A stretch of 64,000 nt of DNA from Malacoraja senta (GCA_038087875.1 CM075988.1:18168001-18232000), one strand, 5' to 3'; counted from the stretch's first letter, positions 1-49,834 are shown. A program made the numbers and translations. The notes: generated by a model not told the origin, from the letters alone.

Positions 1-1589
1 ATTTTCTCGACTATTCTGGCCTCAGACGTGTCGGAGTGAGCTCAGGTCCCAGGTGTGAAATGGCCCTGGGATTCAGACACGGTGCAAGCCCTACCACAAC
101 TAGGGAGCAGTGCCTCTTTGATGACCTCTTTGATGACCCTCAGACTATCCTTGATCGGACTTTGCACTAAACGCATCATGTCCTCAAGTGATCTGTAACT
201 TACATTTACAGTGTAAATGTAATCATGCATTGTCTTTCTGCTGACTGGATAACACGCAACAAAAGCTTTTCACTGTACCTCGGTACACATGACAATAAAC
301 CAAACTGACTCCATCTTGGTGTAAATAAAGTAGGTGCTTTTTTAAAAGTCCCAGGGCGGGCAGGAGCACCGAGTGCCATGACCTGCCCCTGGTAGTGTTA
401 CCCCGCCAGTTGTACCTCCCACTCTATCATCTGCCACTCCATATGGACTGTTACCCATATAGTTGGTGCATCATGTTCAACGATGCACTGTCAAATGGTG
501 GAGAAGTAGATAACCATGGATACTTTTAACTAGACTGAAGTGTGAAATCCCATTAGGGAGAATCACGTCTTGCTGCATAGACACCCCCCCCCCCCCCAAG
601 AGGGGGATTTAATCAGCCAGCTATTACAGATACACTCGCTAAACCTAAAACTCTAGTGAAATTATTCAGATCACTTGGAGATTTGTGGCAGAAAAATACC
701 CTGAAGAAATAATTGACCCTCTTACAAATCCTAAGCATGGAGCATCTTGTGAGAGTCAGTGCTGGACTTTGTAGAAGAATGTTCCCGCTCTCGGGATTAG
801 CTCAGTATCGTAGGGTTCAGCTCGCTCAAGGTGCCAGGGGAAGGGCCTCAGCTGTTTACATCGGCTCCTCAATTGAAAAATACGTGGTCGGTATTATCTG
901 GTACAGAGAAGACGTTGGCTCAGAGATCCCAGCCATCCCTGGGCACGCCAGCACATCATTAGTCAAGAGTCAGGAGTGTTTTATTGTTATATGTCCCAGA
1001 CAGAACAATGACGTTCTTACTTGCGGCAGCACAACAGAATAAATAAACATAGTACTCTGTAAACAACATAATAAATGTAAAAAATGTTATATATAGAGAG
1101 AGAGAGAGAGAGAGACATTGAACTTTTTAACAATTATTTTTTGCTTGTGCACACACATGCATACATGCGTATTAAAAATAAGCAAACAATAATAGTGCAA
1201 AAAGACAAACCCAATGCCCCCAGGTCTATGTAGTTCAAAGCTTAATGGAGGTTAGGCCTACAGGTCATGTGATAGGAGCAGAATTAGGCCATTCGGCCCA
1301 TCAAGTCTACTCCACCATTCAATCACTGCTGATCTATATCTCTCTCCACAGAAGCTGGCTTTCATAAACATAGAAACATAGAAAATAGGTGCAGGAGTAG
1401 GCCACTCGGTCCTTCAAGGCAGCACCACCATTCAATATGATCATGGCTGATCATCCAAAATCAGAACCCTGTTCTGGCTATTCCCCCATATCCCTTGATT
1501 CCCTTAGCCCTCAGAGCTGAATCTAACTCTAGAATAAATTCTAGGAGTAGAAATAGGCCATTCGGCCCACCAGGTCTACTCGGTCATTC

Positions 1590-1848
1590 AATCATGGCTA
1601 ATCTATCAGCCGTCTGTGGCAATGAATTCCACAGATTCACCACCCTCTGACTAAAGAAATTCCTCCTCATCCCCTTTCTAAATGTACGTCCTTTTATTCT
1701 GAGGCTATGGCCTCTGGTCCTAGATGCTTCCACTGGTGGAAACATCCTCTCCACATCCACTCTATCCAGGACTTTCACTTTTCGGTAAGATTCAATGAGG
1801 TGCCCACTCATCCTTCTAAACTCCAGCGAGTACAGGCCCAGTGCCTTC
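1590..1848 (-). mobile_element. CR1 LINE ORF2 C-terminal fragment
   Basis: ORF 1584-1850 LGLYSLEFRR...TRGHSLRIKG...FFSQRVVNLWNSLPQ. Confidence 0.85.
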
Positions 1849-3139
1849 AAACGCAGTTTTTTGTTTTTTGTTTTTTGTTTATTTCAGATTTCCAGCACCT
1901 GCATTTTCTAATGTTATGTGAAAGTCAAGGATCAATGATGACTTATTTACTTGTATATTGTGCAGTTTCTGGTAAAACATGCAGCTTGTTCATCTTTGAG
2001 TTGAAACATAATTCTGATCTAATTATTGTGTTCCTTGGGCATACTTTGAAAGTACAAAGTACACGGCCAATAAATTATTCTTGTGAAGCAGCTTCTTCAT
2101 CAGTTCATAAGTTTACTGTATATGTTCTGGAACAGAATTAGGCCATTTGGCCCATCAAGTCTACTCCGACATTCAATCATGGCTGATCTATCTTTCCCTC
2201 TCAACCCCATTCTCCTGCCTTCTCCCCGTAACCCCTGACACCTGTACTAATCAAGAATCTGTCGACCTCCGCCTTAAATAATATCCATTGACGTTGCCTA
2301 CGCAGCCGTCTGTGGCAATGACCTCTCAGGTAATGATCTAGATTCCAGGTAAAGGTGTGGAGAGGAATCTCAGGTTAACTTGATGCCTTTAACTCCGTCT
2401 CCCTGCTAGTTTGTCAGAATAAATTAAACATGCCTGGGAGAAACGCAATGTGCGCCGAGGAAGGATTAACATATTTTGTTAATTGAAACAATTTTTTTCA
2501 ATAAAAAGGCTGTTCATTATTAAAATGAATGTAGCCAATGGTTACCAATTTACTTTTCAAATGCAAATTTTGCAGGTCAAATCGGCGAGGTCTGCAGAAA
2601 AGAGGATGAGAGAGGTTTCTACCTGATGCTGTTGTCTCACCCCTCAGGCTGGGGAAACATTCTCATGCAGAAAATGAGAGGAGTCTGGGTTGAGGCAATA
2701 ATAGGCTCGGTAATAGAGAGACACACACAATGGAAGGTTGAGGGGGGTCAGGATCAAAGCAGGGGAAGGAGATCTGGAGGGTTCGAATGAATGGAGATAA
2801 GGGCAGGGAGATGTGAAATTAGCAGTGGGAGAATTCAACATGTTAATCTGCACGGTAATGATAGGGAAGAGACGACACCAAAAATATCCGCGAGCATAAA
2901 TCTGAAATGTCAAAGAACGAGAGGCAGGTTTGCATTCACATAGCGCCTCCCACACAACACCTCACAGCAGATAAAGCACTTCAACTGTTTAGTCATTTCA
3001 GATGGAGAGAGGGACAAAGATAACATTCAATGGTTGTTTCATTATCATCTGTGCAGAGATACAGTGACAAGCTTGTCCTGCATGCTATCATACGACACAT
3101 GAGTAAAATAGATCCTCTCCTGGAACAGCATAAGGTCTG

Positions 3140-3332
3140 GGTAGACAAAAAATGTTGGAGAAACTCAGCGGGTGAGGCAGCATCCTATGGAGAGATATCA
3201 GTCTGAAGAAGGGTCTGGACCCAAAACGTCGCCAATTCCTTCTCTCCATAGATGCTGCCTCACCCGCTGAGTTTCTCCAGCATTTTTTGTCTACCTGAGT
3301 TTTTTCCAGCATCTGCAGTTCTTTCTTAAACA
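3140..3332. mobile_element. Fold-back Penelope-derived mini-element
   Basis: Inverted arms ggtagac.../...gtctacc around a CTGAAGA motif; same leader as 31278 in the opposite orientation. Confidence 0.75.
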
Positions 3333-3629
3333 TGTGGTCAGGTTGTCATACAGCATGGAAGCAGGCCCTTCAGCCCAATTGTCCATGCTGACCAAGATGC
3401 CCCTCCTACACCAGTCCCATCTGCCCAAACAGGCCGTTTGGCCCACTGGGCCCACACCAGCCACGGGAGAGGGAAACGAAAGGTAAGGCACACCAACACT
3501 AGTTCTATGTTATCCCACTTTCTCATCCACTTCCCACACACTGGGAACAATTTACAGAGGCCAATTAACCTATAAATGCCTTTGGGATGTAGGAGGGAAT
3601 CGGAGCATCTGGAGCAGGGGTGGGGAACC

Positions 3630-27782: not shown

Positions 27783-29086
27783 ACCTTTCCATTCAGCTGA
27801 AGATGTTTTTAAAAAACCTTTCAGAGGTGTAAAGGAACTAATAAGCAATTATAAATATTTAATTTTTTTAAAATTACTAATTGACTACAGCACTCCAATA
27901 TAAGTGAACATTTGCTCTGTAGTTTTAAAATAATCTGCAGTTATTTGGTATCAAGTTACGAACAGATGGCTGATGAGACACTGAATCAAGTTCTGAGTTT
28001 TTTTGGTAATAAACTATTTATCAGCCTTGTTAACAAACCCCCCAAATAACCATTTTGAAAACATCGAGAAAGATTGTTGAAAGCAATTGTATTGTGTAAA
28101 AAAAGAATACGTTTCAGATGTTGCTGGGTTATACTGAGCAATGCAGATCATGCGTGTTGCATATCTTTCATTCATTGTTCTTTATCTCTCGACATTACCG
28201 TCTATATCTCTCGTTTCCTTTATCCCTAACCAGTCTGAAGAAGGGTCTCGACCCGAAACGTCACCCATTTCCTTCTCTCCAGAGATGCTGCCTGTCCTAC
28301 TGTGGCTTTTTGTGTCTATCTTGTGTGTAGGAAGGAAGTGCAGATGCTGGTTTAAACTGAAGATAGTCACAAAATACTGGAATAACTCATCAGCATCTCT
28401 GGAAAATAGGAATAGATGACGTTTCGGTTCGAGGCCCTTCTTCAGACATGTTCTTGTCTTCTTCTGAAGAAGGTCTCGACCCGACCAGTCTGATCCCTGA
28501 CCAGTCTGAAGAAGGGTCTCGACCCGAAACGTCACCTATTCCTTTTCTCCAGAGTTGCTGCCTGACCCGCTGAAGTACTCCAGCTTTTTGAGTCTAATGC
28601 AGATCAGGTATTGTAGAAATGGAAACTGCAGGGTAAGATACTATTGTTTAAAATGAACACACTCGTGCATGCAATGTGCATGTAGAACACTGTCACCTTT
28701 TAACACTGACTAACCTGGCCCCATAGCAGAAGCGTCCACGTCGCGGGGCTGGAAACTGGAAGTATCCTGAGCTAATTCTGCTACTACCATCATCTATTGC
28801 GACAAGTAATGGCTTCCACTAATTGTCGCCGGAAGCTTGCGTCCTTTTCAGGACGGACGATGACAGTGAGGTCAACATTTGTAACAAGATGGACACGAAA
28901 AGAAGAAGTGACTTACGTTATCCAGGAAATACCAGAAGAAACCTATTGTCTACACTAGGTAATTCAGCAGGCTGTGATGGTGCATTGGGAGTGTTTATGG
29001 TCCCACCACTGAAACACAGACAGTATATCAAGAGACTGTTGTTTTCTATTTGTCAAACCCAGAAAAAACAATTAAAGACAAAGTTA

Positions 29087-38605: not shown

Positions 38606-38903
38606 GGGACGACAGATGGCGCAATGGGCTAAGGGTTCGGCTGGCAACCGGAAGGTAGCCGGTTCGAATCCCGCTTGGAGTGCATACTGTCGTTGTGTCC
38701 TTGGGCAAGACACTTGGTCGGAGGGGCCGTAGGCGCAGATTAGCAGCCACGCTTCCGTCAGTCTGCCCTAGGGCAGCTGTGGCTACAGAAGTAGCTCACC
38801 ACCACCGAGTGTGACTGAGGAGTGAATGAATAATGCGATGTAAAGCGCCTTGAGTATTAGAAAGGCGCTATATAAATCCCATCCATTATTATCATTATTA
38901 TTA
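38606..38903 (+). mobile_element. tRNA-derived SINE resembling teleost AFC-type SINEs, with L2-like tail
   Basis: A box TGGCGCAATGG (38617-38627), B box GGTTCGAATCC (38661-38671), gtgtccttgggcaagacactt core, gggcagctgtggctaca motif, gtaaagcgc...gcgctatataaat stem-loop and an (ATT)n tail. Confidence 0.85.
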
Positions 38904-44545: not shown

Positions 44546-44707
44546 CTTCACTATTAAACTTGTTCCAATGTTCTGGTCAGAATGGTGTTGGTCTCCCCCC
44601 AGCTAACGTTGTATACTATCACAATGAGGGCCTACCTTGGAATGCAGGAGGTTGAGGGGTGATCTTATAGAGGGGATTTGGGATGATCAGCCATGATCAT
44701 ATTGAAT

Positions 44708-44761
44708 GGGGTGGAAGATTGCAACCTTCACGTGGTCCGCCCTGTTTCGACTAATGCAATC
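44708..44761 (+). ncRNA. Minimal HDV-like (CPEB3-type) self-cleaving ribozyme motif, copy 1
   Basis: P1 GGGGTGG/CCGCCCT, P2 GATTGCA/TGCAATC, P3 ACC/GGT, L3 TTCACGT, GT, residual P4 TTCGA, J4/2 CTAA. Confidence 0.8.
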
Positions 44762-44848
44762 AACTCGACGTGCACAAACAGAAGATCAAATAGGACAAGT
44801 TGTCCAACAACTTTAGGCTGCGCACGCCACACGAAAGAAGAAGAAGAA
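44708..44848 (+). mobile_element. Ribozyme-headed short retroposon, copy 1 ((GAA)n tail)
   Basis: Flanked by direct repeat gatcatattgaat(gg) at 44695-44709 and 44849-44863; interrupts a CR1 3' UTR; homologous to 48604-48732. Confidence 0.85.
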
Positions 44849-45334
44849 GATCATATTGAATGGCTCAAAGGACTGAATGGCCTACTCCTGCACCTATTTT
44901 CTATGTGGTTAGAAAACCCAATGAGGGAACAAAATAGGGTAAATGCAGTCTTTTACCCAGGGGGTAAATTTGTTGATTCTGGATTTGTACATATTTTTTC
45001 TCATTGACTGACTGTGTTTGGTTCTGGTATCTGTTCATCATTAGTTCTTCATAAATAAGCAAAATAACATTGTTATGTGCTATTAAAGTTGCCAGGGGTA
45101 AACGGGATGAACAAGGTTGGGAACGCCTGGGTGAGAGGGTTCAAGAACCAGAGGACATAGGTTCTGTCGTATCGTATTTGAGGTGAGATGGGAAAGAACT
45201 TGTGGGGCAACTTGTTCACACAGAGGGTGGTGGGTATGTGGAACGAGCGGCCAGAGGAGATGGTCAAGGCAGGCACTATAACAACACTTTAAAGACATTT
45301 GGACAGGTGCATGGGTTGGAAAGGTTTAGAGGGA

Positions 45335-48500: not shown

Positions 48501-48603
48501 AGACTAGGTGGTGATGCCTGACAATGGCGGAGTTGGGGCAACGAGAATCAGAAGGCACAAGTTTTTGGTGAAGGGGGAAAGATCTTATAGAAATCTGAGG
48601 GGT

Positions 48604-48657
48604 GGGGTGGGAGATTGCAACCTTCACGTGGTCCACCCTGTTTCGACGAATGCAATC
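48604..48657 (+). ncRNA. Minimal HDV-like (CPEB3-type) self-cleaving ribozyme motif, copy 2
   Basis: P1 GGGGTGG/CCACCCT (G1.U wobble), P2 GATTGCA/TGCAATC, P3 ACC/GGT, L3 TTCACGT, GT, residual P4, J4/2 CGAA with the putative catalytic C at 48647. Confidence 0.85.
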
Positions 48658-48732
48658 AACATGGCGTGCACAATCAAATAGAACAAGTTGTCCTACAACT
48701 TTAGGCTGTGCACCCCATACGCAAGAAGAAGA
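48604..48732 (+). mobile_element. Ribozyme-headed short retroposon, copy 2 ((GAA)n tail)
   Basis: Flanked by agaaatctgaggggt (48589-48603) and aggaatctgaagggt (48733-48747); interrupts a CR1 fragment. Confidence 0.85.
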
Positions 48733-49834
48733 AGGAATCTGAAGGGTAACTCTTTCATGCAAAGGGTGGTGGGTGTATGGAACGAGCTGCCGGAGGAGGT
48801 AGTTGAGTCAGGGTCTATCACAACGTTTAAGAAGCAATTAGACAGGTACATGGATAGGACAGGTTTAGAGGGACATGGGCCAAATGCATGCAAGTGGGAC
48901 TGGTGTAGATAGGATGTGTTGGTCGGTATGGGCAAGTTGGGCCAAAGTGTTTGTTTCCTTGTTCTATGCTTCTAATACAGTTCAGAACAATGCCAATTAA
49001 ACAACTAGCCATTTAAGCCTACAAACATGTATGTCTTTGGAGTGTGGGAGGAAACTGGAGCACCTGGAGAAAACCCACATGGTCACAGGGAGAATGTACA
49101 AACTCCGTACAGACAGCACCTGCAGTAAGGATCGAACCTGACCCTCTGGCGCTGTAACGCAGCAAATCTACTGCTGCACCTCGGGTGGGGTGAGGATTGC
49201 TGCCAGTACTTAGTTCGATGAGGAATCTTAAAAGGTATCTGCAGCTGATATAACCGTGCGATTTGTAGCCCACTTTCCATGCAAAGTTGCTTACACTGAG
49301 TAATATTTCTCACATGATCCAAGGGCTCCTGCAGAACCGGCCGGCCGCTGTGACAATCTGTCTGTGGGTGGGTGGGAGCCGGTGGGTGGGGAAGGAAGCA
49401 GTGTGACTCTTATTCCAACCCACCTCGCTTGCTGGCAGCAATCCACAAAGGTGCTGTCAGTCGCAGGCCCAGCAACACGGGCATGAAGAGCAGGGCCGGC
49501 CCTCTTTGGGAACAGGCGCTACACCAGGCGAAACCTGCTCACACACTCAGAAAGATCCAAAGGACATCCTCCGTCCACCCTGGGAAAAAGACTGTCGCCA
49601 GTCACCTCATCATAAACTTGTATACCTCCATCATTTGGACAGGTACGTGGAAAGGAAAGGTAGCACAATGGTGCAGCGGTAGAGTTGCTGCCTCACAGAA
49701 CCAGACACCCGAGTTCTGTCCTGGTCACGGGTGCTGACGGTGTGGATTTTGCATGTTCTCCCTGTGACAGGGTGGGTTTCCTCCGGGTGCTCCGGTTTCC
49801 TCCCAAAGACATGCAGGTTTGTAAGTTACTTGCT

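Follow-up and report, generated by a model that had tools for sequence, protein, structure and literature searches.

What sets the 5′ end of a high-copy mobile element: a promoter, or self-cleavage of its RNA? This question is raised by two insertions in a 64,000-nt stretch of the genome of Malacoraja senta (GCA_038087875.1, CM075988.1:18168001-18232000; hereafter, the window), which start at the same G and end in (GAA)n. The original prediction, made by a model from the sequence of the window, took them to be members of a ribozyme-headed family that is released from longer transcripts by self-cleavage and mobilized by a partner long interspersed nuclear element (LINE), plausibly of the RTE type. 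Here, we conclude that the first of the two insertions (copy A) is very probably a young copy of a ~140-nt non-autonomous retroposon without long terminal repeats (non-LTR), which carries a hepatitis delta virus (HDV)-like ribozyme fold and is mobilized by an RTE-like LINE. The element, designated famA, is composed of three modules, i.e., a 54-nt HDV-like ribozyme fold without the helix P4, a family-specific body of ~65 nt, and the terminal motif CACACGAAA followed by (GAA)n. The same genome holds thousands of HDV-like ribozyme folds as heads of small retroposons, together with a matching LINE, and this system lets one test whether self-cleavage, and not a promoter, sets the 5′ end of a high-copy mobile element.

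Results

Two copies of famA in the window

A blastn search of the window with a 141-mer of the element returned a pair of famA copies, at 44708-44849 (copy A) and 48604-48734 (copy B), which are 85.6% identical over 139 nt (E-value of 4.5e-43); no third copy was found in the window, where the remaining matches of the 141-mer have E-values of 3.5 or worse. In the alignment, the similarity of the two copies begins at GGGGTGG in both and ends in (GAA)n. Copy A reads GGGGTGGAAGATTGCAACCTTCACGTGG... from 44708 and ends in ...CCACACGAAA(GAA)4G, with the tail reaching 44849, one nucleotide beyond the end originally assigned to it (44848). The features of the two copies, including their target site duplications (TSDs), are as follows:

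44696..44707, no strand: upstream TSD of copy A, ATCATATTGAAT; the same 12-mer occurs again at 44850-44861
44708..44761, (+) strand: HDV-like ribozyme head of copy A, without P4 (helix parse, covariation)
44708-44714 with 44737-44743, (+) strand: P1 of copy A, 7/7 paired
44717-44723 with 44755-44761, (+) strand: P2 of copy A, 7/7 paired
44724-44726 with 44734-44736, (+) strand: P3 of copy A, 3/3 paired
44727-44733, (+) strand: loop L3 of copy A, TTCACGT
44751-44754, (+) strand: junction J4/2 of copy A, CTAA, with the presumed catalytic C at 44751
44762..44826, (+) strand: family-specific body of copy A, without detectable similarity to the partner LINE
44827..44849, (+) strand: 3′ terminal motif CCACACGAAA plus (GAA)4G of copy A, common to the LINE 3′ end (alignment, blastn)
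44850..44861, no strand: downstream TSD of copy A, repeating ATCATATTGAAT
48590..48603, no strand: upstream TSD of copy B, GAAATCTGAGGGGT
48604..48734, (+) strand: copy B, of an older subfamily, with its ribozyme at 48604-48657 and CGAA as J4/2
48716-48734, (+) strand: tail of copy B, CATACGCAA(GAA)n
48735..48747, no strand: downstream TSD of copy B, GAATCTGAAGGGT

The TSD of copy A comes to 15 nt with the ambiguous flanking bases included, a G in front and GG behind, and reads from paralogous host repeats without the insertion join 44709 to 44862. The TSDs of copy B match except for an extra A near the start of the upstream one and one G/A difference. Two separate insertions, each with its own TSD and sharing the first G and the (GAA)n end, had been claimed from the sequence, and blastn, the alignment, and the TSD reading bear this out. 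The differences within the head that had been listed between the copies are also present: the copies have AA versus GA in J1/2 (alignment and helix parse), G versus A opposite T5 in P1, and CTAA versus CGAA in J4/2, with the C kept.

Three ribozyme helices covary across element families

The first 54 nt of famA fit an HDV-like nested double pseudoknot lacking P4, in which P1 crosses P2 and encloses P3. In famA, G1 pairs with T (44708/44743), a wobble that closes P1, and a 7-nt linker takes the place of P4 both in famA (GTTTCGA) and in another short family described below, G5 (GTTTYCA). The helices of famA, the candidate partner LINE, and three other ribozyme-headed groups from the same genome are as follows:

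famA: P1 GGGGTGG/CCGCCCT; P2 GATTGCA/TGCAATC; P3 ACC/GGT
LINE: P1 GGGGATC/GATCCCT; P2 GGTAGAA/TTCTACC; P3 GCG/CGC
famC: P1 GGCCCC/GGGGCT; P2 AGCAGAA/TTCTGCT; P3 GCG/CGC
G3: P1 GGGGGCC/GGTCTCT; P2 AGCAGGA/TCCTGCT; P3 GTG/CGT
G5: P1 GGGGTC/GGCCCC; P2 GGAAAGA/TCTTTCC; P3 GCG/CGC

Covariation was tested on an alignment (A3) of 14 ribozymes from six element families, over 17 pairs in P1, P2, and P3. We found that 94.8% of the cells in these helices are paired, compared with 76.2% in shuffles and 43–52% when the partners are slid. Both-sided changes occur in 12 of the 17 pairs, which was equalled by none of 500 shuffles; on four of the five measures used, the observed value was equalled by 0 of 500 shuffles, and on the fifth by 5 of 500. 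Relative to the LINE ribozyme, P2 and P3 of famA are mostly replaced, with compensation. Outside the helices, L3 is TTCACGT in most families, the exceptions being famC (TCCACGT), G3 (TTCTCGT), and one G4 copy (TTCACAT); the aligned ribozymes all keep the G that follows P1, and J4/2 reads C-N-A-A in 13 of 14 (TGAA in L044), with the two A's invariant. The J4/2 C is catalytic in HDV ribozymes, and “minimal” HDV-like ribozymes lacking P4 have been described as active. The predicted ribozyme fold is thus borne out by cross-family covariation; on this model, the head of famA would be an HDV-like self-cleaving ribozyme, with cleavage predicted.

famA copies share their first nucleotide across the genome

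The genome searched comprised 1.94 Gb in 6,182 contigs. The 141-mer yielded 2,106 first-look candidates, and all of the 40 that were scored, ranked by score, proved to be full matches (98–100% identical, covering at least 138 of 141 nt). The first 28 nt of famA have 1,382 exact matches, compared with 667 for a 28-mer near the 3′ end and none for reversed-pattern controls. Since random 5′ truncation would give the opposite ratio, the twofold excess of heads argues against it, in agreement with the original expectation; the surplus fits a slower divergence of the head. Between famA subfamilies, the body differs by 11–22% and the ribozyme by 4–7%, and the sole clear subfamily difference in the head is CTAA versus CGAA in J4/2. 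From this pattern, we infer that master copies were probably selected to keep the fold.

We fetched 30 famA loci, 28 of which were scored by a script for the 5′ junction. GGGGTGG directly follows the TSD in 27 of these 28 loci, the exception (L025) missing one G, and the central copy in L029 likewise begins at G1 after its TSD. In 325 kb of DNA from the same genome that had been fetched for other reasons, all four bystander copies of the famA type, which have TSDs, reach G1 within 2 nt, as do all three window elements. The upstream flanks are unrelated among the bystanders and the 29 flanked copies in which the junction was read. The common first nucleotide originally seen in two copies therefore holds genome-wide. 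The script found TSDs of 9–15 bp in 27 of 28 loci, with a median of ~12 bp, a broader and lower range than the 13–15 bp first proposed, and tail lengths vary between (GAA)3 and over (GAA)20. With TSDs of variable length, a simple-repeat tail at the 3′ end, and dispersed insertion sites, famA displays the hallmarks of target-primed reverse transcription.

Some of the loci have peculiarities of their own. L017 and L018 represent a single insertion within a duplicated segment. At the 5′ junction of L007, 8 extra G's stand between the TSD and G1 of the famA copy, and in L022, a young famA copy lies inside an older one in the opposite orientation, with flanks that are the reverse complement of the old-subfamily tail; the 141-mer search also lists the partial matches there. 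A very abundant host-repeat stretch (…GATCAGCCATGAT…ATTGAATGG…; window parts 44640-44707 and 44850-44910) houses 3 of the 30 loci, namely L001 (i.e., copy A), L020, and L026, and L007 adjoins the same stretch, just upstream. Such clustering in one host repeat could reflect target preference or merely the abundance of the repeat.

An RTE-like LINE shares the ribozyme fold and the 3′ terminus

Matches to the CPEB3 ribozyme model in this genome (see below) include one group, group 1, that runs into a long open reading frame (ORF); three copies of this LINE were fetched. Its full copy (L061) is 3,136 nt (~3.14 kb) long, is flanked on both sides by the TSD ACAGAACAAAA, and carries a ribozyme at L061:113-185 (63.8 bits on RF00622). 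The first ATG of its ORF (940 codons) lies 30 nt after the ribozyme, and the product contains the Pfam domains Exo_endo_phos and RVT_1. Copies of the LINE are 95–98% identical, and the three fetched ones have open frames of 940, 1,014, and 876 codons; the stop in L061 precedes a C-terminal region encoded by relatives. The RTE clade is defined by a single ORF encoding an apurinic/apyrimidinic endonuclease (APE) and a reverse transcriptase (RT), the lack of an ORF1, a length of ~3.2 kb, and short untranslated regions (UTRs). L061 has a single ORF with an N-terminal APE endonuclease and an RT, no ORF1, and short UTRs. The partner LINE appears to be RTE-like by this architecture, which serves here in place of a tree, its protein homologues (46–87% identity, in amphioxus, sea urchins, teleosts, Anolis, insects, and crustaceans) being without clade names. 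The original prediction had anticipated an autonomous LINE that combines a 5′ ribozyme with this 3′ tail, plausibly of the RTE type.

The 3′ end of L061 is ...AGACACGAAAAGAAGAAGAAG (also given as ...GACACGAAAAGAAGAAGAAG and ...CAAAGACACGAAAAGAAGAAGAAG), the terminus of the partner LINE is GACACGAAAA(GAA)n, and the terminus common to the LINE and famA is ACACGAAA(GAA)n. In blastn, famA matches L061 only over the last ~20 nt, with one difference, and its body has no match; famC shares 17 of 17 terminal nt with the LINE. What the short elements have in common with the LINE is confined to the ribozyme core and the final 12–20 nt. On these grounds, an L061-type LINE is a plausible partner able to copy famA. 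The origin of the short families by internal deletion of the LINE was considered and rejected, since none of the bodies of famA, famC, and G5 matches it. With the one LINE subfamily sampled, famA shares the ribozyme architecture and ~20 terminal nt and differs in the body and the helices; a bipartite element would consist of the 5′ and 3′ parts of its own LINE.

The LINE and its putative dependants also differ in number. The 3′ 247 nt of the LINE gave 221 genomic candidates, 40 of which were scored, at 98–100% identity, and its 28-nt head occurs at 11 genomic sites with no more than one mismatch. Set against the famA counts, these 11 head sites indicate that the LINE is mostly 5′-truncated, whereas its short dependants are full-length and more than 100-fold more numerous. 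We also observed that the LINE frame seems open through the terminal ACACGAAAAGAAGAAG (L062 reverse strand; L061:3000-3250), with L061 stopping ~70 codons earlier; the conserved 3′ terminus may therefore be coding (...RHEKKK) besides being a recognition site.

Other ribozyme-headed families in the same genome

The sole Rfam match at the gathering level in the window is CPEB3_ribozyme at 28705-28782 (43.4 bits, cut-off 35), which heads a different element, famC, with G1 at 28717. Its features are as follows:

28707-28716 and 28909-28918, no strand: imperfect TSD of famC, TGACTAACCT and TGACTTACGT, respectively
28717..28908, (+) strand: famC, a different ribozyme-headed element (CPEB3_ribozyme match, genome search, junctions)
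28717-28782, (+) strand: ribozyme of famC, with P4 present, followed by an unrelated body
28891-28908, (+) strand: tail of famC, GGACACGAAAAGAAGAAG

The genome contains 2,073 candidates for famC, and 40 of 40 scored were 96–100% identical and near full-length. A T preceding G1 of famC was considered as a part of the element or as a target preference and was rejected as an artefact of a query that started at that T, with only the top-scoring matches shown. Across the genome, RF00622 gave 51 matches among 59 scored candidates, of which 39 exceeded the cut-off (best, 64.2 bits), and 30 fetched loci fell into five groups, each starting at the first G of the ribozyme. Among the short elements, G5 is a further family of ~175 nt with a P4-less ribozyme head, the tail ...GGACTCGATAAGAAG, and TSDs of 11–12 bp (L051, L053, and L057-L060). 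Thus, at least two further short families, famC and G5, follow the famA design with other ribozyme helices and bodies.

Besides these, G2 to G4 are older ribozyme-headed elements with other bodies, one of which (L044) ends in an A-rich tail. In L033, L038, and L049, a LINE head (the ribozyme plus 25–180 nt) passes into unrelated sequence, perhaps through internal deletion or through interruption by other insertions. Elsewhere in the window, ARAGORN reported a tRNA-Ala (GGC)-like sequence at 38609-38683, which may be a tRNA gene or a tRNA-derived head of a short interspersed nuclear element (SINE), and the window has 415 stop-to-stop frames of at least 60 codons.

Promoter, relic, or ribozyme?

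A defined 5′ end by itself fits a transcription start as well as a cleavage site, so that the conserved head of ~54–70 nt could be mainly an internal promoter (a “LINE promoter”) whose fold is secondary or inactive. The available portions of two papers lend this idea some precedent, given that in molluscs the LINE-derived head of a SINE, ~70 bp long, is read as a promoter (PMC4758252) and Pr77 of L1Tc is reported to be promoter and ribozyme both (PMC3383444). However, compensatory changes in three pseudoknotted helices are not predicted by a DNA promoter, nor is the retention of the C-N-A-A junction and L3 while the helices are swapped wholesale, and we regard a head that serves mainly as a promoter as improbable; a dual role as promoter and ribozyme is possible. 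Alternatively, the head might be an inactive relic of the LINE 5′ end, kept only because the short RNAs are copied full-length, with mobilization depending on the 3′ terminus alone. The lack of P4 in famA, its scores below the Rfam thresholds, and individual old copies with disruptive changes (e.g., L078b, which has lost J4/2 and P2′) would agree with such a relic, but the head is 2–4 times more conserved than the body between famA subfamilies, the helices co-vary instead of decaying, and three unrelated bodies (those of famA, famC, and G5) each keep a ribozyme head from G1, which makes this explanation very improbable. As for an ordinary SINE transcribed by RNA polymerase III from a head of tRNA, 5S, or 7SL origin, famA does resemble one in being short, abundant, flanked by TSDs, and tailed by a simple repeat. 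Nevertheless, neither ARAGORN nor Rfam found a tRNA-, 5S-, or 7SL-derived head in famA: ARAGORN detected no tRNA in any of the three window elements, in line with the original reading of famA, and Rfam returned no small-RNA family at the gathering threshold or at an E-value of up to 10, apart from the HDV-type ribozyme and two chance archaeal snoRNA models. A polymerase III SINE is thus effectively refuted, with next to no probability left to it.

The reading we favor, i.e., a ribozyme-headed retroposon copied by an RTE-like LINE, also has points that weigh against it. The best Rfam match of copy A, RF02682, starts exactly at 44708 and is sub-threshold, with 16 bits against a cut-off of 44 (E-value of 1.8); our custom model R1, built from A3, gives the head 53.7 bits, but copy A was in its training set. 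The P4-less variant could be slow or inactive as a ribozyme, and the first P1 pair in G5 would be G-C, not G.U. With respect to the 5′ ends, ranking by score biases the 40 scored matches of the 141-mer toward full-length copies, and the ranking-independent sample is small (7 copies, i.e., the 4 bystanders and the 3 window elements). Finally, because the likeness between famA and the LINE is limited to the ribozyme core and ~20 terminal nt, another, unsampled LINE subfamily could be the true partner.

Distant LINE relatives with upstream ribozyme candidates

Scanning metagenome contigs with a 16-protein alignment yielded 80 loci, in which the LINE relatives share 32–52% amino acid identity. Nineteen loci with a 5′ flank were scanned with Rfam and 31 loci with R1. 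Among the 19 loci to which both models were applied, 10 have an HDV-like candidate immediately upstream of the ORF and on its strand. Five of the ten are weak (14–25 bits on R1, or 31 bits against a cut-off of 44 in Rfam), and scores below ~25 bits were judged by eye:

L087, L088, and L089: RF00622, 55.6 bits
L137 and L101: R1, 27 bits
L115: R1, 24.8 bits
L098: R1, 18.9 bits
L096: R1, 17 bits
L122: R1, 14.4 bits
L084: RF02682, 30.9 bits (cut-off 44)

The P3 of famA, ACC/GGT, is also present in L101 and L137. The elements in L122 and L084 begin precisely at the predicted G1, lie between direct repeats of 12 bp, and end in ...ACGAAAGAACA and ...GACACGAGA(TAA)n, respectively. Distant relatives with upstream ribozyme candidates and such ends suggest that the 5′ ribozyme and an ACACGA-type terminus are features of the lineage.

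Relationship of the LINE ribozyme to the CPEB3 ribozyme

The LINE heads score 63.8–64.2 bits on the mammalian CPEB3 model (RF00622, cut-off 35), and L087, from an unrelated metagenome contig, scores 55.6 bits. L061 equals the model consensus over 18 consecutive nt (AGAAGCGUUCACGUCGCG) and a further 10 consecutive nt (UGCGAAUUCU); from G1 onward, L087 shares 35 of the first 37 nt with it, as well as the last 9 consecutive nt. The LINE ribozymes and the CPEB3 model have the same P1, P2, and P3 sequences, though these helices covary freely in sister families. The fold of the CPEB3 ribozyme is that of the LINE ribozymes and also that of famA; since famA, with different helices, has no match to RF00622 at its cut-off of 35 bits, the LINE match reflects shared sequence and not the fold alone. 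Common descent, not convergence, is the simplest reading of this likeness at the sequence level.

The CPEB3 ribozyme is a single-copy intronic element conserved in mammals (Rfam description), whereas the LINE ribozymes are repeated 5′ heads of mobile elements. Given that the LINE is widespread, the CPEB3 ribozyme seems more likely to derive from such an element than the other way round, and we put at about an even chance that the mammalian intronic ribozyme arose by exaptation of a 5′ head, either from this RTE-like LINE lineage or from a short ribozyme-headed derivative. Our literature search, which did not reach Webb 2009 and Ruminski 2011, found no paper stating that the CPEB3 ribozyme originated from a LINE. 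The near-identity of the LINE and CPEB3 ribozymes makes the origin of the latter directly testable and, with it, the proposal that the HDV ribozyme has a cellular origin.

RNA reads and a proposed cycle

In the cycle that we propose, famA would be transcribed inside longer transcripts, and its ribozyme would cut just 5′ of G1, so that RNA and element share their first nucleotide, as the fold and the exact genomic 5′ ends suggest. The RT of the RTE-like LINE would then recognize the shared 3′ terminus and repeats and would copy the famA RNA into a nicked target by target-primed reverse transcription, a process that leaves duplications such as the 9–15-bp ones seen at famA loci. The mechanism put forward in the original prediction, a ribozyme-released, non-autonomous element mobilized by a LINE, is supported by the 5′ ends, the covariation of the fold, and the candidate LINE. 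An active famA would cut any transcript carrying it in the sense orientation and therefore offers a test of selection on intronic orientation. Such selection had been suggested originally from a putative antisense placement of both copies in a CADM1 intron, but three elements in the window are too few to reveal an orientation bias.

Reads were placed on 44600-44950 from one raw polyA RNA-seq run (X24) and three contig runs. The depth of element-like RNA in X24 declines from ~160 to 66 for first mates on (+) and from 105 to 30 for those on (−). No begin or end pile-up is listed at copy A; the flanking host repeat is 1,300–3,400 deep and the threshold is one fifth of the neighboring depth, so a start pile-up at G1 could not be flagged. 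In contig runs of another organism, many unrelated sequences abut 44707/44708, which points to the same 5′ boundary in that organism. The ratio of (+) to (−) first mates in X24 is ~1.5–2.3 to 1 over 44720-44849 and ~0.4 to 1 in the flanking host repeat, in a library whose strandedness is not established.

Comparison with known systems

The comparisons that follow draw on the available portions of the cited papers. That RTE and other non-LTR retrotransposons carry HDV-like ribozymes at their 5′ ends goes back to Ruminski et al. 2011, as cited in PMC5786205, PMC3774820, and PMC7761336. The ribozymes of RTE elements are double pseudoknots that cleave at the first nucleotide of the element, with a single APE and RT ORF downstream, and L061 fits this description; famA, which was compared by description and not by sequence, differs in being 140 nt long, ORF-less, and P4-less. 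The bipartite, ORF-less RTE-clade elements RTESINE2 and WALLSI3, for which a 5′ ribozyme has been suggested as the reason that the 5′ end is kept (Kojima 2018, PMC5786205), resemble famA in being short, ORF-less, and LINE-mobilized and in retaining the extreme 5′ end of a LINE. However, they consist of the 5′ and 3′ parts of one LINE through internal deletion, whereas the body of famA is unrelated and ~20 terminal nt are shared.

The R2 SIDEs (Eickbush and Eickbush 2012, PMC3414825) and NARTc/L1Tc (PMC3383444) are non-autonomous elements that, like famA, have the 5′ HDV-like ribozyme and the 3′ recognition sequence of their partner. The R2 SIDEs are specific for rDNA sites and NARTc belongs to the trypanosomatid ingi clade, whereas famA is dispersed over variable targets, with more than 1,300 copies in an animal genome. 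Mollusc LP-SINEs, which share a ~70-bp head with LINE 5′ ends, including that of a turtle RTE (Matetovici et al. 2016, PMC4758252), are likewise flanked by TSDs and have a LINE-type head, a variable body, and 3′ tandem repeats; this likeness is one of description, not of sequence, and in the available text, their head is read as a promoter with no ribozyme fold claimed. Our literature search found no follow-up on the LP-SINE heads.

Judged against these sources, the novelty originally claimed for this kind of element was overstated, since PMC5786205 already discusses bipartite, ORF-less RTE derivatives in connection with a 5′ ribozyme, and PMC4758252 describes LINE-headed SINEs. The mechanism and the kind of element are already in print, and what is added here to the cited literature is the famA family itself, its scale in this genome, its P4-less head, and a design in which the body is unrelated to that of the partner LINE.
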